A stretch of 63,672 bases of DNA from Dehalococcoidia bacterium (GCA_003599735.1 QZJI01000057.1:1-63672), one strand, 5' to 3'; shown: positions 2,763 through 30,160, counted from the first letter of the stretch. Numbers and translations: made by a program. Notes: generated by a model from the letters alone, not told the origin.

Positions 2763-2763
2763 C

Positions 2764-9905: not shown

Positions 9906-9992
9906 GCGCAGCACACGCGGGGCCGGGCGGCTCAAACAAATGGCCGTCCGGCATCCCGCGATCTCAAAGGACAACGAAATCAGGAGAATCAC

Positions 9993-12254: not shown

Positions 12255-13361
12255 ATGGATAAGGCACTCAGGCGCCGCCTCGTTCGATCTCTGAACGCTG
12301 CCCGCGGCGATCATTCGTCGAAGGACTCGATCCGACTGGCCCACGGGCCGCAACGACGTCAGCGCCAATTGGCAGAGCGCAATTGGCTTGATGCTCATCG
12401 GGCCAAAGTCCTGCCCGGCTTCGCGGAGGCATGCGAGGTCGATCCGGCCACGATGAAACCCGTCTTAGTTCCGGTCACAGCCGGGACACCGGACGCAGAC
12501 CTGTTCCGCGCCGCGACGCTGCTGTGGTCGGTACCCGTTTCTCGAGGGTACGGCCGACGAATGCGCTATCTGGTCCGCGATGATGCCAACGGCAAGATCA
12601 TTGGACTGTTTGCACTTGGCGATCCTGTCTTCAATCTCCGAGGCCGGGACGAGTGGATCGGCTGGGATGTGGCGGCGCGCCGCGAACGAATCTCTAGCGT
12701 GATGGATCTGTACATCTGTGGGGCGGTTCCGCCATACAACACGCTCCTGGGCAGCAAGCTAGTCGCGTCCCTGGCGACCTCGCAAGAAGTGGTCGACCGA
12801 TTCCGCGAGCGCTACGCGGGCCGTCGGGGGATCATCTCGGGGATCGTCAAACCGGCAGAATTGCTCGTGATCACGACGACCTCCGCGCTCGGCAAGTCGT
12901 CGCTCTACAACCGACTGAAGCTTCCGACCGATCCAGTCACTGAGTTCCACGAGATCGGATACACGCAGGGCTGGGGACATTTTTCCGTCGGCGATCGCCT
13001 CTTCATGGAGCTCCGCGATCATCTGTTGTCGGAAGATCATCGATATGCCAACGGACATCAATTCGGGACGGGGCCGAACTGGCGTCTGCGAACGATCCGA
13101 GCGGCGATGAAGTCGCTCGGCGTCAACGACGCCTTCCTGAATCACGGGATTCAGCGACAGATCTTCGCGACCGAGCTGTCCGATACGTCGCGCAAACAGC
13201 TGCGCGAAGGGATCAAACGCCGGAGAGTTCGGAGACCCTCCGCGGACGAGATTGCCGAGGCCGGCCTCGCCCGCTGGGTGCGGCCGCGGTACGCCCGTCT
13301 CGGCATACCTGCGTGGTCGCGGGCGGATCTCGAACGGTTGTTGGACGGTGACGCGGACTAG
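12255..13361 (+). CDS. DUF4338-like protein (DruA-like)
   Basis: Blocks RGYGRRMRYLVRD..NGKIIGLFALGDPVFNLRGRDEWIGW, YICGAVPPYNTLLGSKLVA, TTTSALGKSSLYNRL and GYTQGWGHFS match my recollection of Pfam DUF4338. Not verifiable without an HMM search. Confidence 0.55.
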   Translation: MDKALRRRLVRSLNAARGDHSSKDSIRLAHGPQRRQRQLAERNWLDAHRAKVLPGFAEACEVDPATMKPVLVPVTAGTPDADLFRAATLLWSVPVSRGYGRRMRYLVRDDANGKIIGLFALGDPVFNLRGRDEWIGWDVAARRERISSVMDLYICGAVPPYNTLLGSKLVASLATSQEVVDRFRERYAGRRGIISGIVKPAELLVITTTSALGKSSLYNRLKLPTDPVTEFHEIGYTQGWGHFSVGDRLFMELRDHLLSEDHRYANGHQFGTGPNWRLRTIRAAMKSLGVNDAFLNHGIQRQIFATELSDTSRKQLREGIKRRRVRRPSADEIAEAGLARWVRPRYARLGIPAWSRADLERLLDGDAD

Positions 13362-13418: not shown

Positions 13419-14672
13419 TTATTGTCGCGCCCCTCCGGAGGGGGCGCGGTTTGTGAGGGGAAACACCTCGGAGTAGTCGGATGTCGCGAGGAATATGAGA
13501 TCGTGTTCCTCGTCGCGCTCAATGCGGACGTTTAGCACTCGCATGAGCTCACCTACGCCGTAGGCCGCGGTTTCTTCGTGCGATCGGATGACCACAGAAC
13601 GTTGTTGCTCTATTCCGAAACCGCGCTGAACGGTTGCTAGCCAGGTACGCGGTCCATTTCGGGCGTCCACCAGCAGTTCCACGTCTATCGCTCGATCAGC
13701 CGAGGCAACCGACCCCGACGCAACTGAGTCCGCCAAATGGTCCCAGTAAGGATTGCAAAGCTGACGCACTTGGCAGTGGCTACAGAACGTGGCCTCCGGT
13801 CGTGCAGTCGGTGGGCGTTCGATCATTGAGCCCAGCGCAGCGGCGCTTCGTGTGCGGAGGTCGTCTTCCAGGCGGTCAAGCTCGTCGCGATCCGGAGCGG
13901 GGAAGACTTCTTCTCGAGTCGGATACGCGACGACGAGCTCCGTTGCGATTCGTCCGGATGGATTGACAGCGGCATCTCGCGCCCAAAGCAGCGCATAGAT
14001 CCGCAGTTGGGCCTCGTGGTCCTCCTGCGGGACACCGGTCTTGTAGTCAGTAATCCGGCAGTTGTCTGCGTCCAGCGATATCAAGTCAGCCTTGCCGATC
14101 CACCCCATCGACGGGACACGCAGTTCGACTTCCGCGTGGGATCCGATCCCTATGGCACGAGTCCTTTCCTCGCTAGAGCGCGGTGTCGCCCCCGACGTTC
14201 CGGCGACGACATCGCTGCGCGCGATCGTCGTTTGAACCCCTCGACGCAGTTCGGGCATCTCGAGTGTGAGCGCGCGGCGGATCGCGTCCATGCGGCGCGC
14301 AACGCGCGGATTTGTGTGGAGCGAGGACAGTACCGCTTCCGAAACAGATCGCAGGACTACCGAGTACCCGCCGAGATCCTTGAGGACAATGACGCGGCAT
14401 GGGCCATCGTGTCCGTCGCAGTGGTGAGTGGCCATCGCGCGGACAATGACTTCAAGCGCTCCATGCAACACCTCGCCCTTGAGGGTCGCGAGGAAGGGAT
14501 TATCTGGGTAGCCTCTTCGGCTCCAGATATCCGGGAAGGTCGCATGTCGAAGCATCCATCGTCGTGGACAATGCTCTACTTCCGCGAGAGTCGAATAGCT
14601 GAGTGCATTTGGCGGGGACGGCCAAGTACCGTTGCTTCGCTCTACGTCGGTCAGGAAGGCGTCGTTCGCCAT
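13419..14672 (-). CDS. Cas4/RecB-like PD-(D/E)xK nuclease with a Cys cluster
   Basis: GKADLISLD..ITDYKTG..QLRIYALL (D / D-Y-K / QxxxY motifs), plus N-terminal CPRRW and C-terminal CSHCQVRQLC (a four-Cys arrangement as in Cas4/AddB). ATG lies 1 nt after the helicase stop. Confidence 0.75.
   Translation of the reverse strand: MANDAFLTDVERSNGTWPSPPNALSYSTLAEVEHCPRRWMLRHATFPDIWSRRGYPDNPFLATLKGEVLHGALEVIVRAMATHHCDGHDGPCRVIVLKDLGGYSVVLRSVSEAVLSSLHTNPRVARRMDAIRRALTLEMPELRRGVQTTIARSDVVAGTSGATPRSSEERTRAIGIGSHAEVELRVPSMGWIGKADLISLDADNCRITDYKTGVPQEDHEAQLRIYALLWARDAAVNPSGRIATELVVAYPTREEVFPAPDRDELDRLEDDLRTRSAAALGSMIERPPTARPEATFCSHCQVRQLCNPYWDHLADSVASGSVASADRAIDVELLVDARNGPRTWLATVQRGFGIEQQRSVVIRSHEETAAYGVGELMRVLNVRIERDEEHDLIFLATSDYSEVFPLTNRAPSGGARQ
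13426..13448. terminator. GC-rich hairpin between convergent genes
   Basis: CGCGCCCCTCC GG AGGGGGCGCG (one bulge), followed by GTTTGTG on the + strand. Overlaps the last codons of the minus-strand nuclease gene. Confidence 0.4.
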
Positions 14673-14673
14673 C

Positions 14674-17600
14674 TCAACTAACGCTTCGCACGACGAAGCG
14701 ACTGGCCTCCGGAAGGTTCCGCTCGATGATCAGTTGGTCAACCAAGACGACAGCGACGGAATCTCCGAATTCCATCGCTTCGACCAAAGCCGGGTCGATA
14801 GGCGTCCCGGGTGTCAGCGGTCCGTGCAATGCGATGATGAAACTGCCGATTGACGAAGTCGCGAGAATCGGAGCAATGAAGGATCCGATCCCAGGAATAT
14901 CTAAAGCCGCGTCACGCTCAAATCGCACACCGTGGTCTTCCTGCCGAACCAGATCAGTGAATAGACGGTCAGCGGCCGCTTCCGCCCGACCGGAATCGAT
15001 CTGCGGCGCCTCGTCGAACAGAACGTAGCGCAGCAGGGTCGAGCCGAGGTGGCGGTCCAGCAAGTCATGCTCGAAGCGGTTCCTGAAGCTCCTCAAACAT
15101 CGATAGCAGGACCGGTCGCAGTTCGAGGGGCAGGTTTCCAACAGTTTCAGCGCTTGCTCGAAGAGCCCTCGACCTAGGTCGCGCGCGCGCCGAGTAAACC
15201 CGGCGCCGCCTGAGAGCGTGTCATACAGGTATATCTCCGCTTCGAGTCCCTCGTGACCAAGCTGAGTCAAGGCCGGCCTGTACTCAGCTTGGAGTTCGCC
15301 GGGCTCGATCTCCAGCATGGTGGTCGCCGCGATGGTCAGCGCCTCGGAGACCGTACGGAGGGAAACATCCGTGGCGAGATATCCGGGACGGAGCGTGAGG
15401 GGCTGCTCGACCTGGATCGAGACGAGTAGGACATCCGAAATGAAGTCCGTTCCGAGAACCAGGCCCTGGGTACTCGCCCCTCCGGGGCATTCTGGCTCAC
15501 GCATATCCGGATATGGCTTCGCGTGCGGAGCCGACGTCCGGCCCGTTGGGATCGCAGTTGGCTCGATGAGCCCGCAGCGGGTGCAGTAGCTGTAGCCGTC
15601 TTGCCTCGGACCAGTGTTGGTCACCAGGAGGTCGGTTCTTACGTAGTGCTCCCTGAGCCTCGCGGTAAGCGGTGACCAACTGGAGTCCTCAGAGGGCTCC
15701 CCTGCGATCAGTTTCGCTCGCGTCGCGTAGCTGCGAGCCGGCGAGTCGTCCGGTGACGTTCCCTCGTCGACGTTGACCGGATGTGCGAATCCGGGCGGCC
15801 TCATCCAGTTGCGAGCCGGGCCGAACGTACCTGCGTTGCCGCACGCCGGGCAAACGCGGACCTCGCCGCGCTCAGCGGTGCTGTACGGTTCGGTCCGCGC
15901 GAAGTGACATATGGAACATTCGAAATACAGGCGACGGTCGTGCCACTCGTCGTAGAGCTCGGATCGCATTGGCGAGTAAAGAGCTCCAGCTGTCCACAAC
16001 TTGCCGTCGACCCAAACTTCCTTACCGGGGGCATATTGGGTTAAGGCGACGGGCAAGCCCTGACTCGGCGAGTATTGAAATACCGGCCGGAAGCGCGTCG
16101 ATTCGTTGCGGTTGAAGACATAGAAGCTGACGACATCCGTCGGGAACGCGTATCGCGGTAGTACGCCCCGATACAGCAAGCGATCAAGCAGGTTGCGGGC
16201 AGCACGACTCGCGTCGGTCTTCTCCTCGCCCGGCTCCGACTGCACCTCCACACTCTCGGCGTCGTCATCCGCGGCGTTCCCGGTGGCTCCATCCGAAGTA
16301 TCGGCGTCGCCGCTATCCCGCGACGCGTCCCCGACGTCAATCGCCTTGTCGATCGCAGCGAGCGTCGCATCGACGATCCCAGCCAACAGCCCGCTCCGAT
16401 CGGTCCCCGCTAACTCGTGTGGCAGCCAATCGTCCGCTTCCGCGGCGAGCATCGATTGATTGGTTCGAAGCCAATCCTCGAAGTCGCGACGGTTGAGTGC
16501 GGATGTGTCACCACGGAAGTCAGGGACTGTGCCCAGCACTTCAAACAACTGGCGCTGGTCCTCGGGGGGGATCTCTGGCAGCCGCTCGTAGTGGTAGCGC
16601 TGGAGGAGGAAGGCCGTCAGGTGACGTCGAGCGATCTCAGGATTGTCGAGCGTGAGGAGTGGATCACTGACCGGCCCCCGCACCATCATCTCCGGCTCAC
16701 TGAAGTAATGCTCGTCGTGGCTGTCTGCACTGCCAAAGGCGATGACCGTGGCCACCGCATTTCCACGCCGGCCAGCGCGCCCTGCACGTTGCTGATAGTT
16801 GGAACGGGCAGGAGGCATGTTTCGCAACGCCACTCCCGACAAGACACCGATATCGATCCCGACCTCCATAGTGGTTGTCGAGGACAACACGTCGATCGCT
16901 GTTCGAGACTGGCCCGGGATTGTTGGACCGAGGTCGACATCCTGGAACAGCAGCTCGTGCTCTTCAGACTTCGAGAAGACTTCGTCAGCCTGGGCAGTGT
17001 TCAGTTGCGCCGTGTGCTCCGCCGCGATGATTGCCATCGGTGATTCGGGAGGCTCGCGGAGAGCGCGAACCGAACTGCCCCGGTAGTATGCCTTTCGGGC
17101 CGCGAAGACCGGATCAGAGTCCGGATCGACAATTTTGACCCGGTCGCGCGCGCAGTTAATGCACCGCTGCACGCCAGGAAATGGCCTCTGAGTTGTACGG
17201 CACGTTTGGCAGTATGCCCATTCACCATCTGTCTCCAGGGTGACGTGTCTGGCGCGCATCCGATACTTCCCACCCGCAACGCCCTCGCAAAATATCTCGA
17301 GTAGGACGGGGAGCCACCCTCGCTCAAATTCGCGCCGCGAGGCAGGTGTTGGCAGCCACCGTCTGATGGCTTCGAACTTACCGGTATGCGAGCGGACTCC
17401 ATCCTTCGCTTGCCACCATCCATCCGGCATGTCTGCGAACCAGATGCCCGGGACGGTCCATTGATTCAACCAAGCGCGCACGAGTGCGAGTTTCTCAGCG
17501 TCGTCTGACGCCACTCCTCCGATTGTCGGAACGCGCTCTAGTACCTGCTTGCGGAGCCCTTCCCGCTCGGCAAGTGAGGCGAGAGCGAGCGATTGAAGGC

Positions 17601-20244
17601 CGTAATAGCGATCGGTGATGGTTCTCACGATCCCACGAAGGAGCGACTGCGGCGGAGCTTCGGTGCGTAGGCCCATTACGAGTTCCAGCAGCACGACCGG
17701 ATCGGACAACTCGCCCTGACGAATGACTCGGTTCACTTCGCGCTGCGCGTCGAGCGATTCTCCGGCGCGCAGCTCAGGTCGGAGACGCACACGCAGCGAC
17801 CGCGCTGCTATTAGGACTCCGAGGAACAGGTCCTCGAGGCTGAGCGAACTCTTCACAGCGTCAACGCGCCGAAGATCCTTCATTCCTGCCAAGATCAGAG
17901 GACGGAGCACATCCTGCATCGAGTAGGTCTGCAGATTCGGCGCCAGCCGTGCCGCCGTTTGTCGCGAGTCGGAGAAGGTCAACACCTTTCGACCACGGAG
18001 AGGCGCGAAGTCCGAGTATGCCTGGCTCGCCGGCTGCACTTGGAGCTGTCGAGCGACTAGCGCCTGGAACGGCTGATCGCCCTTCGTTTGATGATCCTGG
18101 ACCGAAGATCGGCCGTATCCGGCGAACTGCTTGCAAACTCCGCACGGCCTGAATTCACCCCCCGATCCGTCGATCGACGGGCCCCCTTCATCGTCGTCTT
18201 CCGCGGAAGCGGCGTCTCCGCTGCTCCGGTCGCGCTTGAGAAAGACCTGCCGCGTCCGGTCGCCAGGCATCCAGGGATTCAGGCGGCCGGTCACAAGATC
18301 GAGTTGGAATGGCTCTACGAGTTCTGGAATCGGGTCTTCTAGGCAGAGGTCGAGTGGCAGGAGTTCGGTCACGAGTCCGCCAGCAGTGAGAAACCGCTCG
18401 CCCGGCTCTGACCAGAGGTAGTTCGGGTGGGTAAGGTCATCGGTGTACGCGCGGGCGTAGGCTGCGCCGCAACTGCGGCACGTATACAACTCAAAGACCC
18501 GCGCACCGCATGCACATGTGTCCTGAGGTTGGGCGAAAAGCTGCCCCACTGGGCGTGGTGCTCCCGGACGCACTGCAGAGCACGCTGGATCGATGCACGC
18601 CCAGAGACCGGGAAGTCCACGGAAGAAGGAGTGAACACGACAGGGAAGCAGGCTCGGTTCGCTCGCGTCGCGTTTCGCAGCGCTCCCAAGCGAGATCAGC
18701 GCAGTCAACGCGCGATCGGCCACTTCCTTCTCGGCCGTCGGGAAAATTAGCGCTCCCAGGCTGTCGAGGCGCTGCGCCGCCTGCATGGTGAGGTTCACCA
18801 ACAGGCTCATCGGTGGGTACTGCGCGAGTGCTTCGAACAGCGTCTGAGGGAGAGAGGATGTGGTGGACGTCGCCCGGAACCTTAAGAACGGCTCGATCAG
18901 AGCACGTTTGAGCTCATCGTCATCGGCCTCGGCGAACCCATCGAGATCGAGAGCTGCCAGGACACGGGCATCGGCTTCGGAACCATGCCCTTCGCTCGGT
19001 CGGAGAGCGAGATCACCGGTGATGGTCTCAAAATCGTGCTCGCGTTTGCCCGACAACTGAGCTGCGAAGGCATTCGCCAATGTTGGGTCGCCGAAACTCG
19101 CGCTCGTGCAGATCACTTGCAGGCGGTCTGCGGGAATGCCAAGTCGCGCGCGAAGACGACGAAGGAGGAGGCCAACCTCGGCGCCTGCGGCACCTCGGTA
19201 AAGGTGTGCCTCATCGATCACGAGGAGCAGCCGCTCATCGGGATTCTCGGCCAGCCACCGGCGTGTCAGGTCGAAGATTGGACGTTCGAGGGGACGCATG
19301 AGCATGTACTCGAGCATCGAGTAGTTCGTCACCAACACGTCGGGCGGCGCGGCCAGCACTTCGTGTCGAGTTAGAAGTTCTGGGTCCTCTGGAAGCATGA
19401 CGGCACGTACAAAGTCACCGTTCGAGCTCTGCCATCGCGTGCCTGACTTCCCGTACCAACGTTCCAGATCGGGCTTGGCGGGCCATTTGCCCCGCGCCTG
19501 CAGCGTGTCCATCAAAGTTGCTGCGGCATCCCGCGCCTCAGATGGGTCGCCAGACGCCTTCTCGAGTAGTTCGACGTAAAACTGTCCAAGGGGACGGAGC
19601 TTGGCTTGGTCCTTCGTCGAGGTGCGAACACCGGGATAGAGCGTTCGACTCGTGTACCGCGCGAAGCGAGCCGGACGTCCGGACCATCGATTGAAGGCAG
19701 CCCGCACTCCCGAATCTCCGAGCATGAGACGGAGCCGTCCGAGTTGGTCGTTAACGAGCGCGTTCATTGGATACAGGACTATCGCTCGCAACGACGGAAC
19801 GGCGAACGACTTCGGGCGGTCCGCCGCCTCGATGGCGAGCTTCCCCAAGATCGGTAGCAAGAACGACTCGGTCTTCCCGGAGCCGGTGCCGGTTGTGACC
19901 ACAAGACTTCGCTTGTCGTTCAAGCTGACGGTGAGAGCCTTCCCCTGGTGGTCATAGGGAGGGTCGTGAAGAAGCGCCGAACCGTCGTCCCGATGCGCCA
20001 TGCTGTGAAGCAATTCCGCCGCCGGCGTCGGGAGACCGAGATCGCTGAAGGGCGTACCAGACTGATATCTCGGCGTGGACTCGATGTACGGAACTTGGAA
20101 GATGACGCCAGGTTGGTCGAGCAATGCGCCGCGATCGCGAACGACCTCCTCACTTCCAATGTGGTAGGCCGCCTCGATGTAGTCGCGTAGCGCATTGCGG
20201 ATCTCGTCAATCGTCCCCGAGATTGTTGCCGGACGGGTCGTCAT
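14674..20244 (-). CDS. Giant DEAD/DEAH helicase with C-terminal DUF1998/MZB domain (COG1205, DruE-like), 1856 aa
   Basis: Motif I TGTGSGKTESFLLPIL, motif II VIDEAHLYRG, motif [12 protein letters not shown]. Several CxxC zinc ribbons. C-terminal CPSNCDRSCYRCLRSFRNRFEH. Start set at ATG 20244 (MTTRPATISG), 5 nt after the upstream stop. Confidence 0.85.
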   Translation of the reverse strand: MTTRPATISGTIDEIRNALRDYIEAAYHIGSEEVVRDRGALLDQPGVIFQVPYIESTPRYQSGTPFSDLGLPTPAAELLHSMAHRDDGSALLHDPPYDHQGKALTVSLNDKRSLVVTTGTGSGKTESFLLPILGKLAIEAADRPKSFAVPSLRAIVLYPMNALVNDQLGRLRLMLGDSGVRAAFNRWSGRPARFARYTSRTLYPGVRTSTKDQAKLRPLGQFYVELLEKASGDPSEARDAAATLMDTLQARGKWPAKPDLERWYGKSGTRWQSSNGDFVRAVMLPEDPELLTRHEVLAAPPDVLVTNYSMLEYMLMRPLERPIFDLTRRWLAENPDERLLLVIDEAHLYRGAAGAEVGLLLRRLRARLGIPADRLQVICTSASFGDPTLANAFAAQLSGKREHDFETITGDLALRPSEGHGSEADARVLAALDLDGFAEADDDELKRALIEPFLRFRATSTTSSLPQTLFEALAQYPPMSLLVNLTMQAAQRLDSLGALIFPTAEKEVADRALTALISLGSAAKRDASEPSLLPCRVHSFFRGLPGLWACIDPACSAVRPGAPRPVGQLFAQPQDTCACGARVFELYTCRSCGAAYARAYTDDLTHPNYLWSEPGERFLTAGGLVTELLPLDLCLEDPIPELVEPFQLDLVTGRLNPWMPGDRTRQVFLKRDRSSGDAASAEDDDEGGPSIDGSGGEFRPCGVCKQFAGYGRSSVQDHQTKGDQPFQALVARQLQVQPASQAYSDFAPLRGRKVLTFSDSRQTAARLAPNLQTYSMQDVLRPLILAGMKDLRRVDAVKSSLSLEDLFLGVLIAARSLRVRLRPELRAGESLDAQREVNRVIRQGELSDPVVLLELVMGLRTEAPPQSLLRGIVRTITDRYYGLQSLALASLAEREGLRKQVLERVPTIGGVASDDAEKLALVRAWLNQWTVPGIWFADMPDGWWQAKDGVRSHTGKFEAIRRWLPTPASRREFERGWLPVLLEIFCEGVAGGKYRMRARHVTLETDGEWAYCQTCRTTQRPFPGVQRCINCARDRVKIVDPDSDPVFAARKAYYRGSSVRALREPPESPMAIIAAEHTAQLNTAQADEVFSKSEEHELLFQDVDLGPTIPGQSRTAIDVLSSTTTMEVGIDIGVLSGVALRNMPPARSNYQQRAGRAGRRGNAVATVIAFGSADSHDEHYFSEPEMMVRGPVSDPLLTLDNPEIARRHLTAFLLQRYHYERLPEIPPEDQRQLFEVLGTVPDFRGDTSALNRRDFEDWLRTNQSMLAAEADDWLPHELAGTDRSGLLAGIVDATLAAIDKAIDVGDASRDSGDADTSDGATGNAADDDAESVEVQSEPGEEKTDASRAARNLLDRLLYRGVLPRYAFPTDVVSFYVFNRNESTRFRPVFQYSPSQGLPVALTQYAPGKEVWVDGKLWTAGALYSPMRSELYDEWHDRRLYFECSICHFARTEPYSTAERGEVRVCPACGNAGTFGPARNWMRPPGFAHPVNVDEGTSPDDSPARSYATRAKLIAGEPSEDSSWSPLTARLREHYVRTDLLVTNTGPRQDGYSYCTRCGLIEPTAIPTGRTSAPHAKPYPDMREPECPGGASTQGLVLGTDFISDVLLVSIQVEQPLTLRPGYLATDVSLRTVSEALTIAATTMLEIEPGELQAEYRPALTQLGHEGLEAEIYLYDTLSGGAGFTRRARDLGRGLFEQALKLLETCPSNCDRSCYRCLRSFRNRFEHDLLDRHLGSTLLRYVLFDEAPQIDSGRAEAAADRLFTDLVRQEDHGVRFERDAALDIPGIGSFIAPILATSSIGSFIIALHGPLTPGTPIDPALVEAMEFGDSVAVVLVDQLIIERNLPEASRFVVRSVS

Positions 20245-20249
20245 CGTTC

Positions 20250-21338
20250 CTAAACCTCCACGTCGATGTCTAGCCAGAGCATCTTCGTGACGAAGGCGAG
20301 CTCCTCTTCGACCTCTCCCGGCATCAAGGCGTACGACACAAGCGCACCTCGAGCGGCGATTGGTAAACCGCGCCTGTCCCAGCGGCGTTGAAGCCAACTT
20401 GGCGGCGGTGCGAATAGCGAGAGTACATTCACGCTCGCGTCGCGTGTTACTCGAACGCGCTGCGGATGTCCGCGTACCGCGTCGATGGCCGCCTGTAAAT
20501 GCCAAGCTTCATCGGCACCTCTTGCGAGCGATCCATCCAGCGGAAAATCGACGAAGCGTTGTGGTTGCCCCCCTACCACCTCGACATAGCACCAGAGATC
20601 ACTCCCGTAGGCCTGAGTACGCCGAGCGACGTACCTGCCCGTGTCGCGGGCGGAGGGTTCTCGCCAGCGACCCTTGTAATAGTTCGTGGGTGCCGCTGCA
20701 TCGAGTAGCCGGAGTCCGGGGATCTCCCCTGACGGTCCGGCAGCCTCGAGGTGAAGATCCTTCTCTCGCAGTACGTCGATCGCTGGCGCCATCAACGGGC
20801 ACCTGAGCCAGACCTCTTGACTAACCTCGTGTAGCCCGTAGTCGTCGAGAAGCGTCGCAATGTCGGTCCCCGAGGCCGCGTTGATGATGCGGAGGTGGTG
20901 TTCATGCTCGATGAGTACCGCAAGGGATTCGCCCACGAGGGAGGCTCCTTCCGGTCGCACCCCAAGTAGAAGAAATGCCCCTCCTGACCTCCGAACAAAC
21001 GCGGGCGGGCCGAGGTAGAGCATCCGCCGCCGACGCAGCGTCGCGTTGTCAACCTCTGAGACCTCCAGCAGGTCGCCGGACGCAACTAAGGACTCAAGGA
21101 TTCCCGCGAGGGTCTCGCGCAAGGACGGGCCATCGCCGGCGAGCCCCTCCAGCGGTCTCGCGGTCAAGGCCACGAGCCCGGCAGGAGTGATCGGACAACG
21201 GAAGGACGCCGTTCGGCGAAGTGCTGCAGCGAGCGCCTCGTGGGCTGTGAGGTCCATCGCCGTAGCGTCGAGACCAAGCGCGTCGGTGCAAGCAGCCATT
21301 ACCTCGGCGGGGGTCAGAATGTCTACTCCCATGACCAC
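20250..21338 (-). CDS. Hypothetical protein (362 aa), coupled to the DruE-like helicase
   Basis: Long ORF overlapping the upstream gene by 16 nt and ending 5 nt before the helicase ATG. No domain recognised. Confidence 0.6.
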   Translation of the reverse strand: MVMGVDILTPAEVMAACTDALGLDATAMDLTAHEALAAALRRTASFRCPITPAGLVALTARPLEGLAGDGPSLRETLAGILESLVASGDLLEVSEVDNATLRRRRMLYLGPPAFVRRSGGAFLLLGVRPEGASLVGESLAVLIEHEHHLRIINAASGTDIATLLDDYGLHEVSQEVWLRCPLMAPAIDVLREKDLHLEAAGPSGEIPGLRLLDAAAPTNYYKGRWREPSARDTGRYVARRTQAYGSDLWCYVEVVGGQPQRFVDFPLDGSLARGADEAWHLQAAIDAVRGHPQRVRVTRDASVNVLSLFAPPPSWLQRRWDRRGLPIAARGALVSYALMPGEVEEELAFVTKMLWLDIDVEV

Positions 21339-24300
21339 CCCCGATAGGAGAGCAGCGAGTCGGGGGCGGCGCTCGCGTAGTGGGTCGCGAGAACGAGGTA
21401 GCGCGCGGCCCGCAGGATGAAGGGCACTTCCAGGGCAATCGTCAATGCCTGTTCGATGTCATCTGCCCCTGCCCACGTGTCGAGCGTCCCTGGGGAACTC
21501 GCGAGGCGCAGCACGAATTCTGCGAGCCAACGGCGGTCTACCGGTTCGGAATGAAGCACCGCGCGGCTGAGCTCCGCGAACTCGCGCACGCGCTCCGGGG
21601 TCGACAACGTCGGCGAACTGTTCACAAGTTGCTTCAGATCCAATCGGAAGCCACTGTGCTCTCCCGGACGCGCGAGCGCGGCGTCCAGTTGCACGCGCTC
21701 GATGGACTGGTCCTCCTCGACGCGCGCCTCGGCCTGTTCCCACCAACCGCCTCCTATCACCCCCGCGATCGCTTGAGGGAAGGCGCGTACAACACGGTCT
21801 CGTCCGGCCGCTGCGAATGGATTGCCAGGAACCTCTGCCTGAGCCCATGCCGCCGTGGTGCTGATCCAAGCCCGAAGGGCTTCGAGGGTACGACTCCGGG
21901 TCAGGAAACGCGGGGGCACGCTCATCCGCTGTAGGTCGACAAGGCCTCGGATGAGTGGAGGCATGATCGACGTCGCCACGTACCCGGCACTGCGTGCGAC
22001 GTAGAGTCCGCCGGCACCGGCGCGGAAAAGCCCATCTTCGCCGACGTCGACGACGGTAGTCGCGTCGGGCTGGTCGAAATCGAGGTGCTCAACGCGGACC
22101 ACCTGATCACCCACGTTATCGTGGAGTCGCAGGAAGTAGCCGTTGCGATCCTCACCTGAACCCCATCGGAGAGGAACGAATGCGCGCTCACACTGAAGCG
22201 ACACAGCCCCCAACTCGGCGTGCGTGATCTCGATCACACCACGATTCGCGCTGTCGTACCCCTGATAGACGTCCTTTGCCTGGCGAAAGTCGCGATCGAA
22301 GATCTCCCGCCAGACGTGCGCGGCGATCGGAAGCGTGAGGGGGCCCAACTGCTTGTGGGCGATCCGTTCCGATCCCCGCTCGAGCGATACCCCTACCTCC
22401 ACTGCGACACCTGACGGGCCGAGGACATCGATGGTGGCGCGGCCCTCCCACAAGTCTTCAAGAGTCGGGGACGCCGGCCCAGCGAGAATGAGGAGAGCTT
22501 CGCGGTAGGTCCCACTTGCCGCCCGGACTCGTGGCTCTCGAACGACGATTTCGAGGTAACCCTCAACGGGCGGCGCAGTCGCGTCATCGAGCAGCAGGGC
22601 AACGCGCACCATGTGCGAGCCCACATCGAGTCCCGTGAAGCGAACGTAGGCGGATTCGCTCCGCCCGCTCGGCCATCCAACGCGCACCGGCTCCCCGCCG
22701 TCGAGGATGACGCCGCAATGGCGGACTGCGAGCGTCGACGTAATGCCCAGAATGGGCTCGTCACCGACGACCCATTCGCCGCTCCCTTCTCCGTCCCACG
22801 AAGCCGGTTCCAGTCCCGCCGGTCTCACGTCCACACCCGTCGTGACCCCGATGTTTAGGCGGGCAATCTCAAGGACATCTGCCGAAGAGATTTCGGCCGG
22901 CACCGACATCGTGTACGCGTACACCCCCGCGCAGTCGGCTGATGTGGGAGCGATCCAAGCTGGCAGCTGATCGAACTGGCGCTCCGTGATGAGGATGTAT
23001 TCGTGTCCCGGCCGAACCGCCTTCGTTCGAACCTCGGTAGCGTTTGTCGGACCAGCGAGCCTGAAGACCCAACAAGGACCGGCCGTAAATCGGCATTCGT
23101 CGGCCAGAAGTTGGTTTAGGTGGGCCTCACATTTCTCGAGTTGCAACACCGGGACGTCCGCTCCAGGCCACCTATCCAGTTCGACGCGGAGACCGACATA
23201 AAGGAGGTAGCTGGGCGGCAGCGGCGGTCGCCTTGTCATGCCGGCGACCATGCAGCGAGAGGTGGAGAGTGCAACCTCAAGCTCAGGGAAGCGCGCAATG
23301 AGAGGAGCGAAGTCCGGGGGTTCGACGAGAAGCTGCCACCCTACGGCGTTTCGCTGAAGCCCAAACTTCGCTGGAGCAACCGGCCGAGCTTCGCTGCCGC
23401 GCTCGTCGGGCCGACCGACGGATGGCGCGCTCCGGACGGCATGGGTCGCGAGCCCCCGGAGCTGAACCTTCGCCGCCGAAGTCCTCGCGTCCGTGAGCCA
23501 TCGTCGAGCCTCGCGCTCTGCCGATAGGTCGGAAACGATGCGTCGGAGCGTCGAGGCCAGCAAGAGAGGCGTTTCGCCAGCATCGACTAGGAGGGCGGAC
23601 GCGACCTGGCCGAGCAACGCGGTGTTCTGACAGAAGACGCGAAAGCGGGCTGAGGTCCTCACCGCCCGAGCCGCGAGTCTCACGCCGAGCTCGTTGGGGT
23701 TCGCGAGGAGGTTCGCAGTTAGGTGATGGCGGTACTCATACAACAACCGGGCGAGATGAAGTTGGAGATCGGTTGGTAGGACCGCGTGGGTGATAGGCCA
23801 GCAGATGTTGGTGAACTGCCCCGCCCATGCACCCTGCGGCTGAGCTCCTCCGAATGCGGATGCGAACTCTTTGAATCGATCCCGGAGCCAGGTGCGGTCG
23901 CCGTACCGCGTCCAGCCAGGAGTGGTCGCTTCGAAGGTCTGCCAGTATTCCTCGCCCTCATAGTGGTAGCCGACTTCCGCGGCGTAGACGAGGAGCGCCA
24001 GTGCCCATTTCCGTGATGGCGGTCCCTTCTGCAGGGCGGCGCGCACGTTCGAGCGGACTGTCTCGAGTTCGCTGGGATCGAGGCCGTGCTCGAGGATGAA
24101 TACCGGCCCTGTCCCCACCTGAATTGCGCGCACCGCGCGAAGCTCGCCGAAATGCGTGCTGAGCCTGTCGCTCAGGGCTTCGAGGATTCCAGCAGGCCCA
24201 ACGGGGACATGAACAGGCGCGCGAGGGGACTCCCCCAAGGTGCGTTCCGGTTCCTGGGACGCGGAAGGTCCATTCATCGCGACTACCAAACGTGGATCGG

Positions 24301-24376
24301 CACGCGTCAGAGTCGGCTGACGACCGCTGAGCCGCTGTTGGCGCCTCGCGACGCCATCCCCCAGCTCTGAGCCCAT
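21323..24376 (-). CDS. Large hypothetical protein (1017 aa), first gene of the DruE-like operon
   Basis: Uninterrupted 3-kb ORF. A perfect TATAAT lies 40 nt upstream. No catalytic motif recognised. An alternative start is MNGPS, 33 codons in. Confidence 0.6.
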   Translation of the reverse strand: MGSELGDGVARRQQRLSGRQPTLTRADPRLVVAMNGPSASQEPERTLGESPRAPVHVPVGPAGILEALSDRLSTHFGELRAVRAIQVGTGPVFILEHGLDPSELETVRSNVRAALQKGPPSRKWALALLVYAAEVGYHYEGEEYWQTFEATTPGWTRYGDRTWLRDRFKEFASAFGGAQPQGAWAGQFTNICWPITHAVLPTDLQLHLARLLYEYRHHLTANLLANPNELGVRLAARAVRTSARFRVFCQNTALLGQVASALLVDAGETPLLLASTLRRIVSDLSAEREARRWLTDARTSAAKVQLRGLATHAVRSAPSVGRPDERGSEARPVAPAKFGLQRNAVGWQLLVEPPDFAPLIARFPELEVALSTSRCMVAGMTRRPPLPPSYLLYVGLRVELDRWPGADVPVLQLEKCEAHLNQLLADECRFTAGPCWVFRLAGPTNATEVRTKAVRPGHEYILITERQFDQLPAWIAPTSADCAGVYAYTMSVPAEISSADVLEIARLNIGVTTGVDVRPAGLEPASWDGEGSGEWVVGDEPILGITSTLAVRHCGVILDGGEPVRVGWPSGRSESAYVRFTGLDVGSHMVRVALLLDDATAPPVEGYLEIVVREPRVRAASGTYREALLILAGPASPTLEDLWEGRATIDVLGPSGVAVEVGVSLERGSERIAHKQLGPLTLPIAAHVWREIFDRDFRQAKDVYQGYDSANRGVIEITHAELGAVSLQCERAFVPLRWGSGEDRNGYFLRLHDNVGDQVVRVEHLDFDQPDATTVVDVGEDGLFRAGAGGLYVARSAGYVATSIMPPLIRGLVDLQRMSVPPRFLTRSRTLEALRAWISTTAAWAQAEVPGNPFAAAGRDRVVRAFPQAIAGVIGGGWWEQAEARVEEDQSIERVQLDAALARPGEHSGFRLDLKQLVNSSPTLSTPERVREFAELSRAVLHSEPVDRRWLAEFVLRLASSPGTLDTWAGADDIEQALTIALEVPFILRAARYLVLATHYASAAPDSLLSYRGWSWE

Positions 24377-24796: not shown

Positions 24797-25798
24797 TCAC
24801 AGCAGGCGCCGGGACTCCATCCGCTCGACGTTCCCCTTCTCGAACATCAAGTCACTTACCTCTGAGAACGGTAGCGCTCCTCGTCGGAAGCGATCGAGGG
24901 CGTCTTCAACCTGGGCCGGTGTCAGTACGCCATCGGCATACGCTTCGAGGGGAAGACCGAGCACGGCAGCCGCGTCTCCAAGTACTTGCACAAGCGCTTC
25001 CTCCGCTTGTGCCCTCAGTGATGCCCGGAAATGCAGGAACCTGAGCTCTCGCTCGAAGTGCGCGTAATCGTTCAGCACCCGGCGGTCGCCCATGAAGATC
25101 TCACGGGCGGTCCAGCCGATCGTATGTGTTGCCTGCAGAGCCAAAAGGTCGCGGAGACGAATGTGCTCCTGCACATCGAACGTCGGCGCATCCGCATCCA
25201 TCCCCATCCACTTCGCATCCACCCAATCAGGTGTCAGCTTCTCGGGGATCGCGCCCAACTCACGGAACATCTCGTCAAGCTCGTCACCCGAGTAACGTGA
25301 TGGAAGTTCGACATGTATGAGCCGCGCGGCGGAGAGGTCAACGTCCGTCACACCGCCATAGTCAATGGAGTAGTGAGGCGGAATGTCCTCCGCTCTGGGC
25401 AATACCTGTCGCTTCCTGCCAGATACGGGATCCTCCGCGAGCCCGTGCACGATGGCGACCTCGAACAATCGCTCACGTGTCATGCCTCCGCGTCGTGGCT
25501 CAGGTGCCCGTCCCGCGTCAACCGCGAGCTCAATCCAAACTTCGTGGTCAACGAACAGTCGGCGTGCCACATCTCGGACGAAGTCGTCTGCTCCGCTGTC
25601 TTGGTAGGAGAGACTCAGCGACTCCTCAAGCGCCCATTGTTGTTCGGCTGGCTCTACCACCAGCCGATATGCATCGTTTCTGCTCGTCCGATACGGAACA
25701 ACCCCGTTCGAGACATCTTGAAAGAGCATTTGCGCGTTCAGGCTCTGGGGATAATGTCGCCCACCGGTCGGGACCCACCGAGAGATGCGTTCAGGCAT
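24797..25798 (-). CDS. Hypothetical protein (333 aa)
   Basis: Track ORF 24797..25984 trimmed to ATG 25798 (MPERISRW), which overlaps the upstream gene stop (25791-25793) by 8 nt. No domain recognised. Confidence 0.5.
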   Translation of the reverse strand: MPERISRWVPTGGRHYPQSLNAQMLFQDVSNGVVPYRTSRNDAYRLVVEPAEQQWALEESLSLSYQDSGADDFVRDVARRLFVDHEVWIELAVDAGRAPEPRRGGMTRERLFEVAIVHGLAEDPVSGRKRQVLPRAEDIPPHYSIDYGGVTDVDLSAARLIHVELPSRYSGDELDEMFRELGAIPEKLTPDWVDAKWMGMDADAPTFDVQEHIRLRDLLALQATHTIGWTAREIFMGDRRVLNDYAHFERELRFLHFRASLRAQAEEALVQVLGDAAAVLGLPLEAYADGVLTPAQVEDALDRFRRGALPFSEVSDLMFEKGNVERMESRRLL

Positions 25799-28385
25799 CG
25801 CCGATGTCCTCATCATCCGGTTCGTACTCAGGGTCTGCTTCGTTGCCTGCTCGGCTACGCAGGAAATCCAACTGCTCGTAGTAGCGACGAAGTTCAGGCC
25901 GCTTCCGGAGTTCAGCGTCCGACTCCCCTGAGAGCGGCGCCAGTACACGCGCGGCAAAGAAGACCCGCGGCTCAATCGAGACACTGGGGTAGTCCTCGTT
26001 GATGCCCAACAGCTTGGCTATCTCCGGTGCCTCCCATTGCTCATGCTCGGAGAATGGCGAGTACCGCGGACGCGCGAATCCTCTCGCGACCATGTCATTC
26101 GATAGCCGCATCTCCCAGGTCGTCCGGGTGACGCTGCGAGGAGAAATTCCAACCCCTAAACCCCATCGCGAGATATCGAGGAGGTTGAGGTACGTGCGCG
26201 GGAGCTCCTGCTTGTCGGTTTGGTTCGTCAGGAGGCGGTCCCAGGTTTCGACGATTGGGCGCGCACTTTCGTCCTGCCTGACTTCTCCATAGATCAGCGC
26301 CAGCCCGGAGACCTCGAACAGATCCATGAGAGGATCAAGTACCGCTGAATTCACCTGATACGTCGGAGCCGTGTAGGTGGTCCGGACGTAGCTATCGAGG
26401 CGTAACGAAGCCGACATGACGGCTGGAAACAAGCTGCGCACGCTCTCCGCGTCACCTACGGCGACGGCGTCCGCCAGCTCATGCAAGCAGCGGTAGTGGG
26501 CGTCACCGAACCAATCAGGCTCGGATCGATCCCTTGATGGCGTCAGTTGCGGCAGCTGCTGCGCAAGTTGCCCGAAGACGCGCTTGCGGATCGCGGCAAC
26601 CTCGCTCCGCGCGGTATCGATCTCAGGTGTTTCGACTGGAGGGTTGCCGCCTCGGAACGCCTCAAATGAGGGCAACACTGAGGCCATGCGTGTCAACGTC
26701 AGCTGTGCCTTCTCAAGCAACTGGATGCTTTGAGTACACAGCGCAACTACATTCGTCGCCGGTTGGTTCGGCGGTCCGCTCAGCGAACTGTGTTCCCGCA
26801 CTGCTCTAGGAAGGTCGCGGCAGTACTCCCGAATGGCGAAGATGGCTGAGTCAGCTAAGGCCATCCTGATGAACCAGGCTGGGCTGATGCGCTTTCCCTC
26901 GATCACGATCTCCGCTTCGAGTTGGGTTCGGAGGTCGCCGACCGCTCGGAGCACCCGACGTGGCCCGCGCACCACTCCCACTGTCGCGTCGGTCGCGATC
27001 TCCGGTGCGCTGTCTTCGATCTCCTGCGGCCACTGCTCGATCCCTTGACCCCATCCGAGCAATCTGCTCATCAGTAGGGTCGGTGGCTCCCCTTGCACCG
27101 CCCGCCCGGCGTCGTTGTCGATCTGCATGTCCCAACACATGCGCGTGACGGCTCGACAGTACACATCCGCTGCGTCCGGGTAGCGGAGCGCAGCTACTTG
27201 CGCCGCGCTGCTCGCGGTCAGAGACGACACCGTTAGCGCGGCATCCCGATCCGCGGCCGCGACAGTCGCGGCCAATACCTCGGCCATGAGCCCGCCAAGC
27301 GCTGCCTCCAGCCAGAAGAGATCGGGCTCCTCCTTCCCCTGCAGCGGAATACCGGTTCGGATCGCAAGGTCCGTGGTGGAGTTGTCCGATTCGACCCACC
27401 GCGGATAATTCGCCGCTGGCAGATGCCAACCACTGTCCGCTGGTATCCGGCGGCGCTCTTGGGAGTAGATGACGAGAGCATTGGCCACGTTCCGGGCGAG
27501 ACCAGTCAGTCTCGATGTGCTGATTGCGGCGCGCTTCTGTGATAGCCGCACAATCTGCGACAGCAGGTGCAACTGATGCTGAATGCGTCGGGCCTCACGG
27601 CGGCGCAGCGCGTCGTGCGATCCCGCCAGCCGGTCGAGGCGATTCAGACTCCTTGCTAGCTGTGATAGGGGCTCTGAAACCAGCGCCAAGGGGTCGAGGA
27701 GATTCAGGGATCCAAAGGCAAGTTGACCGAACGCGAGCGCGGCGAACGCGAGTAGTAGTGCGTAGGCACCCAGCGAGATCATCCCGAATGGGACCGAGAG
27801 GGATTCGAGGAGGACCAGGAACAACCCCACCCCGAGCGCGGCGCCCGTTAGGCGAAGCCGGCGCAGCGTGCCTGAGCCGCCCAGAACCAGGCTGCGGATG
27901 TCCGCCGACACGTCCTGGTACACCGTCCCGACCACGATGCTTACCGTCGCCAGGTAGAGCCCCAGCAGGCTCGCCGTTACCTCTGCAGCCAGCTTCGGAA
28001 ACTCCGCCATCGGAGGCCGCGTCTCACCCAGCGGAACGATCCCGGGCCAGCGCTGGGACACTAACCACTCCGCACCTAGCAGCGCCCCACCCACCGTGAT
28101 GCCAAGCGCGAGCCCACCAAGAACTCCGCCGACGGCGCGTCTCGAGGAATCTACCAGCCGCGCGACCGAATCGATCGCGTCTCGCAGACGTACCGTCTGG
28201 CTCAGGCGGCGGAGTTGTCGTGCTTCCTCACGCTCGCGCTGCTTCCAGTAGTCCCTTGTCAGCTGATTCTGAACTTGCCTCGTAAGAGGGGTGGCGCGGT
28301 CGCGGCCAGCTCTCCAGCCCATTCCCGGCAGTGTTTTGAATCGAGAAAGCCAGCCCCACATATCGGAAGCGTAAACCAATTGCAC
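25791..28385 (-). CDS. Multi-pass membrane protein with a large soluble C-terminal region (864 aa)
   Basis: Four to five hydrophobic helices within about residues 84-228 (for example VGGVLGGLALGITVGGALLGA, LLGLYLATVSIVVGTVY, GAALGVGLFLVLLESL, LGAYALLLAFAALAFGQLAF), then about 630 aa with no motif. GTG start is uncertain; the alternative is ATG 28361. Confidence 0.6.
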   Translation of the reverse strand: MQLVYASDMWGWLSRFKTLPGMGWRAGRDRATPLTRQVQNQLTRDYWKQREREEARQLRRLSQTVRLRDAIDSVARLVDSSRRAVGGVLGGLALGITVGGALLGAEWLVSQRWPGIVPLGETRPPMAEFPKLAAEVTASLLGLYLATVSIVVGTVYQDVSADIRSLVLGGSGTLRRLRLTGAALGVGLFLVLLESLSVPFGMISLGAYALLLAFAALAFGQLAFGSLNLLDPLALVSEPLSQLARSLNRLDRLAGSHDALRRREARRIQHQLHLLSQIVRLSQKRAAISTSRLTGLARNVANALVIYSQERRRIPADSGWHLPAANYPRWVESDNSTTDLAIRTGIPLQGKEEPDLFWLEAALGGLMAEVLAATVAAADRDAALTVSSLTASSAAQVAALRYPDAADVYCRAVTRMCWDMQIDNDAGRAVQGEPPTLLMSRLLGWGQGIEQWPQEIEDSAPEIATDATVGVVRGPRRVLRAVGDLRTQLEAEIVIEGKRISPAWFIRMALADSAIFAIREYCRDLPRAVREHSSLSGPPNQPATNVVALCTQSIQLLEKAQLTLTRMASVLPSFEAFRGGNPPVETPEIDTARSEVAAIRKRVFGQLAQQLPQLTPSRDRSEPDWFGDAHYRCLHELADAVAVGDAESVRSLFPAVMSASLRLDSYVRTTYTAPTYQVNSAVLDPLMDLFEVSGLALIYGEVRQDESARPIVETWDRLLTNQTDKQELPRTYLNLLDISRWGLGVGISPRSVTRTTWEMRLSNDMVARGFARPRYSPFSEHEQWEAPEIAKLLGINEDYPSVSIEPRVFFAARVLAPLSGESDAELRKRPELRRYYEQLDFLRSRAGNEADPEYEPDDEDIGDA

Positions 28386-28539
28386 GCGCCGATGCGGGCA
28401 TGTACAGAGCTACCTCCGAGCGAGAGCGCCGGGGAGCATCTGTCGCTCATGATGGAGGCAGTCCACTAAAGAGCGGGGCGAGAGAAGAGGGCTTGTGAGC
28501 GAGAGTGTCTGTGACCATGGGATGTCTCGTGCCCCGCTC

Positions 28540-29664
28540 CTAGTCAGATCCAGGCCAATCAGCAGGCAGCTCAAACGTCTCGAGTGGAGTCGCGACAGGT
28601 TCCGCGGTCTCGCTCTGCCCCTCGGTGCCCCATGTGACTTCGCGAGCGAACGGTATGAGCTCCGACTCCAGCGGGTGCCGGGCCCTTGGGTGGTGGACCA
28701 ACTGCCAAGATGCGTTCGGTCCGAGCCAGACGTGTAGCCGCGGTGCGTAAAGGACGGCGGAGGCCCTCTCGCCCCGCAGGCCTTTGCGGTCCCGCCACGC
28801 GCCGTTCGGTCGCCAGGTTTTCGTCACCGTGGCGTCAGCGTGCAGAACCCATTCCTCGTCTCCGATGAGCGCCGTGAGTAGGTGCTCGTCGCGGGCGAAC
28901 TCCACGCCTGGCACCACGACCAAGAGAAGCGGCTCACCAATGTCGTCACCATACGCGCTGGTCTTCTTCTCCACGGCGCCGCGAATTCGGATCGGTGCGT
29001 CCACCGTCACCACTTCGCTCCCGTAGCCTCCGCGCGCGCCTTCAGGCTCAAGGCCGGGCTTCAGCCGGTACGCCACGATCTCAGCCTCCCAGCCTTCTCC
29101 ACTCCACTCCATTGATGGGTTGGAGTCGGTGTCTGGCAGCGTCTCGACCCAGCCAGTGACATCGCGAAGAAACGTTCCCCGACGGATCGGACGCTCGCCA
29201 GCCGCCCGGGAGTGATACATCAACGTCCATTTGTCGCTCACGACCTCGTTAAGGAGATCAACCGCCTGCATGCGCAGATCCTCAGTGCGAGCGTCGTCCT
29301 CGCGGGGGTTTGCCGTCGTGCACTCCACGAGAAACGAGAGGTCCCCTCGGCGCGCACGGAAGTCGGGACGCTTCGTCGTGCCGGGGATCTTCGGATGCAC
29401 CTCGACCTCGAAGCGCAGGCGGTGCAGGATCGCCATCGTCACAAGCTCGACTAAGGCGCCAAGGTGTACGGCGTGGTCGCGGCTGATGAAGCGCTGGCGC
29501 ACGTCGTGCTGAGCATCGTCCGGAAAGAGCTCAAACGCTTCTTCCAGGAAGGCGCGGACATGCACCGCTGGGACGCGTCCAGTGCGATTGAGGTAGGCGA
29601 ACGGTGCCTCGCGGAAGTCGGCCTCATCCACCGAGGTGCGTTGGCGGTCGCTGAACAGCTTCAT
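28540..29664 (-). CDS. Hypothetical protein (374 aa), possible restriction-endonuclease-like fold
   Basis: Start set at MKLFSD (GGAGAA lies 8 nt upstream). KRPDFRARRGDLSFLVECTT is loosely PD..ExK-like but lacks the Lys. Confidence 0.5.
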   Translation of the reverse strand: MKLFSDRQRTSVDEADFREAPFAYLNRTGRVPAVHVRAFLEEAFELFPDDAQHDVRQRFISRDHAVHLGALVELVTMAILHRLRFEVEVHPKIPGTTKRPDFRARRGDLSFLVECTTANPREDDARTEDLRMQAVDLLNEVVSDKWTLMYHSRAAGERPIRRGTFLRDVTGWVETLPDTDSNPSMEWSGEGWEAEIVAYRLKPGLEPEGARGGYGSEVVTVDAPIRIRGAVEKKTSAYGDDIGEPLLLVVVPGVEFARDEHLLTALIGDEEWVLHADATVTKTWRPNGAWRDRKGLRGERASAVLYAPRLHVWLGPNASWQLVHHPRARHPLESELIPFAREVTWGTEGQSETAEPVATPLETFELPADWPGSD

Positions 29665-30160
29665 GCAACGTTTCTCCGCTCGGTGCATCGTACCGAGGGA
29701 AGCATGGGCGCAACCTTAACGGGCGCCGCGCCCTGCGCGGAACGATGGGTCGAGGCTCTGCCGACGATCCGAGTCCGCCAGTTGGTGCTCGTACAAGTGC
29801 GCAGCGCCCCTTTGACCCCGGCAGCACGAGCCGGGCCAGACAGGGACAAGGTGGGACGAGACGGTATCGGGCGGCATGAGCGGCGCCGCGACCTTCCTGC
29901 CCTCACGCCGACTGCCTTCCACCTGGGAGTGGAACGACGCGCCTAAGCCGTTGCTGTAGCGATTTGCCACACGGACAGGCCTGCGAGCACCGCGGCTGCT
30001 CCCTGTGGGAGCCCGCGCGGGGCCGGGGCGCTTCCCGCCCGCCGACCACATCGCCCGTCGCTCTCAGCCGTACTCGAACGGGGAGCCCGCTGACACGAAA
30101 CGTTCGCCCCGCTCAAGTGTGCTGGTGGGTACATGGGCGAGACGCTCTGAGGTGCCCGAG

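Follow-up and report, generated by a model that had tools for sequence, protein, structure and literature searches.

An apparent Druantia type I variant with a protein of an unannotated family in the place of DruB and DruC

Here we describe a defence locus in a 63,672-nucleotide (nt) stretch of DNA from a Dehalococcoidia bacterium (GCA_003599735.1 QZJI01000057.1:1-63672), referred to at its whole length as the window. At its core are two large open reading frames (ORFs) between positions 20250 and 24376, which a first-pass annotation had noted upstream of a helicase gene: one of 1017 codons, encoding a protein that we call X, and one of 362 codons, encoding DruD. On balance, we favour the reading that the operon of X, druD, druE and a Cas4-like nuclease gene, together with a convergent druA gene, is an undescribed variant of Druantia type I in which X replaces DruB and DruC and is DruH-like in its predicted build. 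We are highly confident that the locus is a Druantia type I variant and that X is an integral component of it. The literature searched describes neither a type I variant without DruB and DruC nor the X family, so the novelty is limited to a variant: the kind of system is known, and new here is this form of it, with a core component that lacks annotation. The new Druantia type introduced by PADLOC itself (type IV; DruE, DruF and DruL) is distinct from the X-type.

Four genes run along the minus strand of the window in the order X, druD, druE and nuclease. The longest ORF for X is 24376..21323 (1017 codons from an ATG) and that for DruD is 21338..20250 (362 codons from a GTG), both where they had first been placed, and every other ORF overlapping the pair is 210 amino acids (aa) or shorter, in line with the earlier remark that shadow ORFs here are short. 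The pair had also been said to overlap each other and to abut the helicase gene, and both statements hold. DruD (D' type; 20250..21332, minus strand; 360 aa) most likely starts at the ATG at 21332, which is preceded by GGGGGTGG and gives a 10-nt overlap with the stop of X; the overlap becomes 16 nt if the GTG is used. As listed, the helicase ORF begins at a TTG at 20505 and runs into the 362-codon gene; the likely start is the ATG at 20244, with GGAGG upstream, 5 nt past the DruD stop. DruE (14674..20244, minus strand; 1856 aa) is a DEAH helicase of the YprA/MrfA family with GSGKT and DEAH motifs, several CxxC motifs and an MZB domain. The gene for the Cas4-like PD-(D/E)XK nuclease (13419..14672, minus strand; 417 aa) is fourth in the operon and begins 1 nt after the helicase stop, and druA (12255..13361, plus strand; 368 aa; DUF4338, GNAT-like) is convergent with the operon. 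The operon junctions are thus -10, +5 and +1 nt, with Shine-Dalgarno-like sequences, and neither a sigma-70-like promoter nor a convincing terminator was found within the four-gene run. The four genes are translationally coupled.

The start of X is probably not the ATG at 24376. Homologs begin about 10 residues ahead of a conserved helix (L..L..RL..HF), which favours the ATG at 24277 (probable coding sequence 21323..24277, 984 aa) or the TTG at 24238 (21323..24238, 971 aa). For the same reason the public gene call for X (931 aa, from a GTG at codon 87) is too short; it removes a conserved, confidently modelled helix.

DruD, DruE and DruA could each be assigned to a known Druantia family. The 362-codon gene had been placed in the slot directly upstream of druE that DruD holds in type I, and comparison with profile hidden Markov models (HMMs) bears this out: over its full length the protein matches the PADLOC DruD1 models PDLC00010 (E = 2.5e-113, residues 3-357) and PDLC00012 (E = 6.5e-84), and on these matches we identify it as DruD. 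PDLC00010 also matches the D' genes of Nitrosococcus watsonii (E = 1e-147). D' DruD is only remotely homologous to the canonical protein (hhalign 92-94%, E ~1e-7, ~300 columns). DruE matches the PADLOC DruE1 model PDLC00013 over its full length with 1941 bits and has the Pfam domains DEAD, Helicase_C and MZB, and DruA matches both Pfam PF14236 (E = 4.5e-70) and PADLOC DruA1 PDLC00002 (E = 2.5e-133); DruA has been described as a GNAT-like domain (PMC10853773). With DruD, DruE1 and DruA all matching PADLOC models, the earlier assignment of the region to the middle of a Druantia operon stands. The nuclease matches Pfam PDDEXK_1 (PF12705, E = 1e-19), and its catalytic D-Y-K residues, QxxIY motif and Cas4-like four-Cys motif are intact.

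The first-pass annotation had described both proteins as having no recognisable domains and had named a clear HMM match to a known Druantia protein as evidence against its view of them. Such a match is what the 362-codon half yields, and only for X, which matches no library, does the description survive. DruD could not have been recognised from Pfam or NCBIfam, because it has zero matches in either, and the DruD sequence alone gave nothing meaningful against sequences of the Protein Data Bank (PDB). This half of the original finding is nevertheless already catalogued, as PADLOC holds models for the D' type of DruD.

X is a member of a large and well-conserved protein family that none of the searched libraries names, which agrees with the 'something new' option first raised for it. 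No match was found in PADLOC (E<=10), Pfam or NCBIfam, even at permissive thresholds, nor among PDB sequences, with X on its own or with a profile of 111 sequences. Walker, nuclease, methylase and transmembrane signatures had earlier been reported absent from both proteins, which agrees with their zero Pfam and NCBIfam matches. Homologs of X form at least 275 clusters at 90% identity, nearly all of them full length (945-990 aa) and ~40% identical, with a few bearing an additional N-terminal TPR; an exhaustive profile search of 1.84 billion representative proteins returned 1616 matches at E<=1e-3 and 873 at E<=1e-30. DruD homologs form 104 clusters at 90% identity, again nearly all full length. 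Against a 70%-identical relative, the ratio of non-synonymous to synonymous substitution rates (dN/dS) is 0.09 for X and 0.08 for DruD, and closer pairs in the same analysis give 0.10-0.35. X and DruD are therefore real proteins under purifying selection; a lack of conservation as proteins had been proposed as grounds for discarding the ORFs, and with values of ~0.1 and full-length relatives they stand.

Conservation within X is concentrated in its N-terminal domain (23462..24196, minus strand; residues ~61-305 of the 1017-codon ORF), in which 91 of 245 columns are >=90% conserved, as opposed to 7-15 in each of the other domains. The invariant residues (1017-codon numbering) are R83, E96-H97 (in EHGL), E134, G136, Y137, Y139, G141, W145, W184, I191, P194, P201, R244 and R279. 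Most of these residues fall within the local blocks singled out earlier, EVGYHYEGEEYWQTF and ICWPITHAVLPTDLQ, where conservation across the family is highest.

We then asked what accompanies X elsewhere, reading complete X loci (L001-L004 and L095-L097) together with 64 classified loci from a genome scan. In every complete X locus read, X is followed by a D'-type DruD and then by DruE, and most are colinear in the order DruA-X-DruD-DruE. This order is found as an operon on the N. watsonii plasmid pNWAT01 (L004, NC_014316.1, 10750-21499), a compact arrangement on a 39-kb plasmid of a cultured strain. It is also found in L097, where a PD-(D/E)XK nuclease gene follows druE. The same nuclease gene comes after DruE in L001-L003. 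In those loci and in the window, druA lies past the nuclease gene on the opposite strand; L004, L097 and most of the genome loci have a colinear druA. The X-type is spread over Alpha- and Gammaproteobacteria, Acidobacteriota, Desulfobacterota, Chloroflexota, Armatimonadota, Spirochaetia, Latescibacterota and others. Against these data, the idea that the two ORFs are unrelated passengers or decayed genes beside the helicase has nothing found in its favour and is as good as dead: across many phyla X is always linked to DruD and DruE, the gene junctions overlap or nearly abut, dN/dS is ~0.1 and there are hundreds of full-length relatives, so that synteny and selection already refute it.

For comparison we used canonical Druantia type I (druABCDE; Doron et al. 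2018; PADLOC druantia_type_I), which is present on pUW163a of Ralstonia solanacearum UW163, where PADLOC identifies DruB (PDLC00005), DruC (PDLC00006) and DruD (PDLC00009). A species-level genome scan seeded with DruA gave 80 loci and a metagenome scan seeded with DruC gave 20 more; classification with phmmer assigned 64 loci to X-DruD'-DruE and 31 to DruB-DruC-DruD-DruE, a ratio that is seed-biased and not to be taken at face value because the genome scan was ranked by similarity to X-type DruA. Pseudomonas, Chromobacterium and Rheinheimera supplied the B/C-type loci of the genome scan, and a plasmid search added Ralstonia. The two forms share much. DruA is on average 63% identical between them (up to 84%), DruE matches the same DruE1 PADLOC model, a DruD homolog stands directly upstream of druE, and the genes form a packed operon in defence islands and on plasmids. 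They differ in that a single, unrelated-looking X of ~960 aa stands where canonical type I has DruB and DruC, in the remoteness of DruD (PDLC00010/12 as opposed to PDLC00009), and in DruE, which is only 34% identical between the forms and 67-73% identical within either. In addition, the clade of the window has druA on the other strand and the Cas4-like nuclease gene after druE. In neighbour-joining trees, the DruE proteins of the two forms fall into separate clades, whereas B/C-type DruA is one clade nested among X-type DruA. The pNWAT01 DruA sits inside that B/C-type clade, a placement that hints at exchange of druA between the two forms.

It had been suggested that the 1017-codon ORF encodes a DruB or DruC analogue. 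As a recognisable relative of either, X fails: no ORF of the window locus matches the DruB or DruC models of PADLOC, X has no such match at E<=10, BLASTP of X with DruB and with DruC gave nothing, and hhalign (172 X sequences against 28-30 DruB or DruC sequences) gave 1.4% for DruB and 0.3% for DruC. A weaker form of the idea, which we consider rather doubtful, is that X is the orthologous counterpart of DruB plus DruC, as a fusion or as the unsplit ancestor, diverged past recognition and with no special relation to DruH. X does occupy the same position between DruA and DruD, and the total lengths are similar (~955 aa as opposed to ~555 + 625 aa). A loss of signal between X and DruB or DruC is also plausible because the neighbouring proteins are themselves very diverged between the forms, DruE at 34% identity and DruD seen by profile only. 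Under the same hhalign conditions, however, DruD keeps 92-94% where X falls to 1.4% or less, and residues 164-286 of DruC form a coiled-coil-like segment, whereas the X model has no long helical segment between its terminal helical domains. The segment in DruC is suggested by weak SMC-type NCBIfam matches to the canonical protein (L008, 15943-17814). This reading is compatible with DruB or DruC also being DruH-like, as they may be. Taken together, synteny, identities and hhalign results lead us to regard X-DruD-DruE as a deeply diverged alternative to DruB-DruC-DruD-DruE, attached to a conserved DruA.

We predicted the structure of X with AlphaFold2 from a 111-sequence alignment (mean predicted local distance difference test (pLDDT) 87.9; predicted template modelling score (pTM) 0.53). 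In 984-aa numbering, the model consists of a helical domain (28-272), a disordered basic linker (273-303), about five beta-sandwich domains (304-772) and a second helical domain (779-968). In window coordinates, all on the minus strand, these are the conserved all-helical N-terminal domain at 23462..24196 (pLDDT ~80-97), a beta-rich middle at 21962..23368 whose domains are immunoglobulin (Ig)- or fibronectin type III (Fn3)-like by DSSP of the model and acidic (isoelectric point 4.4-5.3), and the helical C-terminal domain at 21374..21943. Foldseek searches of the PDB and BFVD with the whole model returned only generic tandem Fn3/Ig arrays with TM-scores <0.15, including fibronectin, the cytokine receptors gp130/IL-11R and IL-23R, and phage Fn3 proteins; among the matches listed, none covered the helical domains. 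DruD was modelled with higher confidence (pLDDT 95.4, pTM 0.88). Foldseek of this model against the PDB gave no significant match (best E 0.12) and only weak matches of winged-helix type to the N-terminal ~60-100 residues, and the remainder appears, as modelled, to be a fold without a solved relative.

The predicted layout of X resembles that published for DruH (YjiT / STY4851-ECs_5259 family, NCBIfam NF038336), the partner of DruE in Druantia type III. DruH has a globular N-domain followed by six Ig-like subdomains and a C-terminal domain that contacts the N-domain, and it binds single-stranded DNA (ssDNA) at the interface of Ig5 and the C-domain, with ATP competing (10.64898/2026.05.12.722862). 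Compared with this published description, the model of X has the same globular N-terminal, Ig/Fn3-like and C-terminal order; DruH (~1000-1100 aa) is, like X, a large protein that has no recognised catalytic domain and is encoded upstream of a DruE helicase, and the fold-search neighbours of the two are of the same kind (cytokine-receptor Fn3 arrays). There are also differences. The druD gene stands between X and druE, X has about five predicted beta domains whereas the published counts for DruH are six Ig-like subdomains or ten domains, and the residues of the ssDNA/ATP pocket of DruH could not be mapped onto X. From the modelled architecture, we tentatively take X to be a DruH-like, non-catalytic sensor or scaffold. 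The earlier suggestion of a DruH analogue thus remains the best-supported option through its predicted architecture, and the HMM and profile searches give it no DruH/YjiT match.

Several observations weigh against this assignment. X has no match to PADLOC DruH (E<=10) or to NCBIfam YjiT_fam/NF038336 (E<=1), a model that does match DruH sequences. Aligned by hhalign with six DruH sequences (ECs_5259 from E. coli Sakai and a diverse set of five encoded on plasmids), residues 28-209 of X pair with DruH 26-204, the N-termini in register, at noise level (E 0.09, 0.6%), a score no better than that of X against DruB; what the two proteins share is hence a predicted architecture and not a demonstrated homology. 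Because tandem Ig arrays are common, a shared architecture is weak evidence by itself, the domain arrangement of X is uncertain given a pTM of 0.53, and no DruH structure was among the PDB matches listed by Foldseek for X. The type III model leaves the link of type I to m6A (N6-methyladenine) unexplained: m6A marks whose source is unaccounted for have been associated with Druantia type I, which has no known methylase (10.1101/2024.04.14.589459). No experiment on X-type loci was found in the literature searched. Finally, the conserved polar residues E96, H97, E134, Y137, Y139, R244 and R279 could mark an active site, in which case X would be more than a scaffold.

This last point leads to another reading, in which X is an enzyme or ligand sensor whose helical N-domain is the active part, modifying DNA or nucleotides or binding a nucleotide, and the Ig array only positions that domain. 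No other part of X approaches the N-domain in conservation (91/245 columns at >=90%), and X-like proteins at ~28% identity, described below, retain its invariant polar residues (R, E-H, E, Y, Y, R, R); such an activity would also speak to the m6A signature of type I, which is unexplained and has no known methylase. Yet X has no match to a catalytic family in Pfam, NCBIfam or PDB sequences, nor among the Foldseek matches listed, the domain is all-helical without a Rossmann-like or nuclease-like pattern, and its conservation could equally reflect a surface on which DruD, DruE or DruA docks. We think this reading improbable. The three readings of X, as DruH-like sensor or scaffold, as counterpart of DruB plus DruC and as enzyme or ligand sensor, overlap in part.

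The analysis establishes gene identities, operon structure and coupling, synteny and co-inheritance, conservation, selection and predicted folds; each biochemical step of the following model is an inference. Published work on Druantia type III suggests, by analogy, that DruE would load on exposed single-stranded or 3'-tailed phage DNA and unwind it. X, as a DruH-like sensor or scaffold, would bind either the unwound strand or a factor from phage or host, and would gate the helicase. DruD, with its winged-helix-like N-terminus and novel alpha/beta domain, might bridge X and DruE. In the clade of the window, the only one to have it, the Cas4-like nuclease would then degrade the unwound DNA, a plausible addition because type I DruE has been reported with only an inactivated Vsr-like nuclease domain (PMC12458937).

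X also has relatives outside these operons. An N-domain with all the invariant residues is present in proteins of 988-1259 aa from plasmids of Rhizobium, Azospirillum and Leisingera and from metagenomes; these proteins are clear homologs of X (hhalign 100%, E 7e-43, ~755 columns) and are unnamed in the libraries searched. A further search with an N-domain alignment that took in distant members retrieved, under a word filter, only 17 proteins, mostly truncated, and contributed three more genomic contexts. A SNF2 helicase gene comes after each X-like gene wherever the record reaches that far. In Rhizobium, Azospirillum and metagenomes, the X-like genes are divergent from UvrD-DrmA-DrmB-NERD clusters, and the Leisingera gene adjoins genes for NERD, a DruE (37% identical to that of the window) and a DUF4338 protein. 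Like those of X, these loci again contain helicases of the YprA/DrmA family; unlike X, the X-like proteins have no DruD, have a SNF2 helicase as partner and stand in another gene order. By this synteny, proteins of the X type are recurrent partners of the YprA/DrmA helicase lineage. The plasmid of Leisingera sp. S132 (L091, NZ_CP083555.1) carries together genes for a DUF4338 (DruA-like) protein, a ~2095-aa DruE, NERD, a SNF2 helicase and an X-like protein, a combination that appears to be a third Druantia-like architecture, as yet undescribed. A comparable pair of DruE and DUF4338 genes is found in Paracoccus versutus.

A more speculative proposal, which we think doubtful, is that X and DruH belong, together with the X-like proteins, to a single ancient superfamily of 'reader' proteins built on Ig arrays. 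Its members would be the general partners of defence helicases of the YprA/DrmA type, in Druantia I and III and in DISARM-like/SNF2 loci, and DruB and DruC would be a derived exception. The E-H, E-G-Y-x-Y-G and W-P-I-x-H-A motifs of the N-domain would then be a new self/non-self ligand site or catalytic site, which might explain the orphan m6A. We also considered X as a degenerate PglX-like methyltransferase, given that ARMADA pairs SNF2 with PglX, and rejected it for lack of a Rossmann-like alpha/beta core in the model.

Druantia type I has been reported among the strongest broad-range defences in E. coli screens. Its accessory proteins have no annotated domains. A large share of environmental DruA/DruE1 loci carry a different middle cassette. 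Because X is invisible to PADLOC, Pfam and NCBIfam, X-type systems are probably scored as incomplete or 'other', an annotation gap that an HMM built on this family would close. Through its predicted DruH-like build, X offers a concrete bridge from type I to the structurally studied type III, and the four-gene operon of N. watsonii pNWAT01 is a simpler system in which to dissect type I. The X-like proteins in DISARM-like/SNF2 loci suggest a module common to helicase-based defences.

Some loci and relatives differ from the window in detail. In the clade nearest to it (L001-L003 and L093), DruA is long (563-661 aa) and preceded, on the opposite strand from X-DruD-DruE, by a HATPase_c_3 protein of ~520-620 aa. 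In the window, DruA is instead short and a ParB-like protein precedes it. Sinorhizobium plasmid loci, broken by IS21 and IS3 elements, and DruA matches in Meiothermus and Hymenobacter, in rearranged or different loci, were not used. A Tolypothrix plasmid examined for DruH has another DruE type and no DruH.

Directly upstream of druA and on the same strand lie three genes (6685-11960, plus strand). They encode a DUF6094 methyltransferase (358 aa; PADLOC mad2, E = 5e-14), a SNF2/ResIII helicase (715 aa; weak DpdE/ZorD/DrmD matches) whose gene overlaps that of the methyltransferase by 4 nt, and a ParB-like protein (655 aa; HTH_ParB and weak ParB_N). The trio might work with the Druantia genes or be a separate system; cooperation is proposed because the distant X-like proteins always pair with a SNF2 helicase and because the m6A link of type I lacks an explanation. 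Further out, a reverse transcriptase of defence-associated type (2572-3858, plus strand; PADLOC RTasDnaG-like E = 1e-28, RT_UG29 E = 7e-23) extends the defence island toward the left end of the window.

On the other side, upstream of X, are three long ORFs of 395, 864 and 382 aa (24797-29688, minus strand). Searches of Pfam, NCBIfam and PADLOC assigned them no family; the one exception is a weak PD-T7-1 match of the 382-aa ORF. We considered them as parts of the system and rejected this, as relatives carry CBASS (L095), DruA (L097) or PLD-helicase (L001) genes there, the 70%-identical relative having a CBASS operon at this position; the three ORFs may be another island cargo. No tRNA gene was found in the window, and no integrase family was matched in the subset of window ORFs scanned. 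The G+C content falls from ~67-72% to 62-65% across roughly 12-46 kb of the window, and housekeeping genes resume from ~31 kb, among them genes for an RsmJ-like methyltransferase, a cytochrome c, an aldehyde:ferredoxin oxidoreductase, a Pst-type ABC transporter and a PAS/HisKA sensor histidine kinase.

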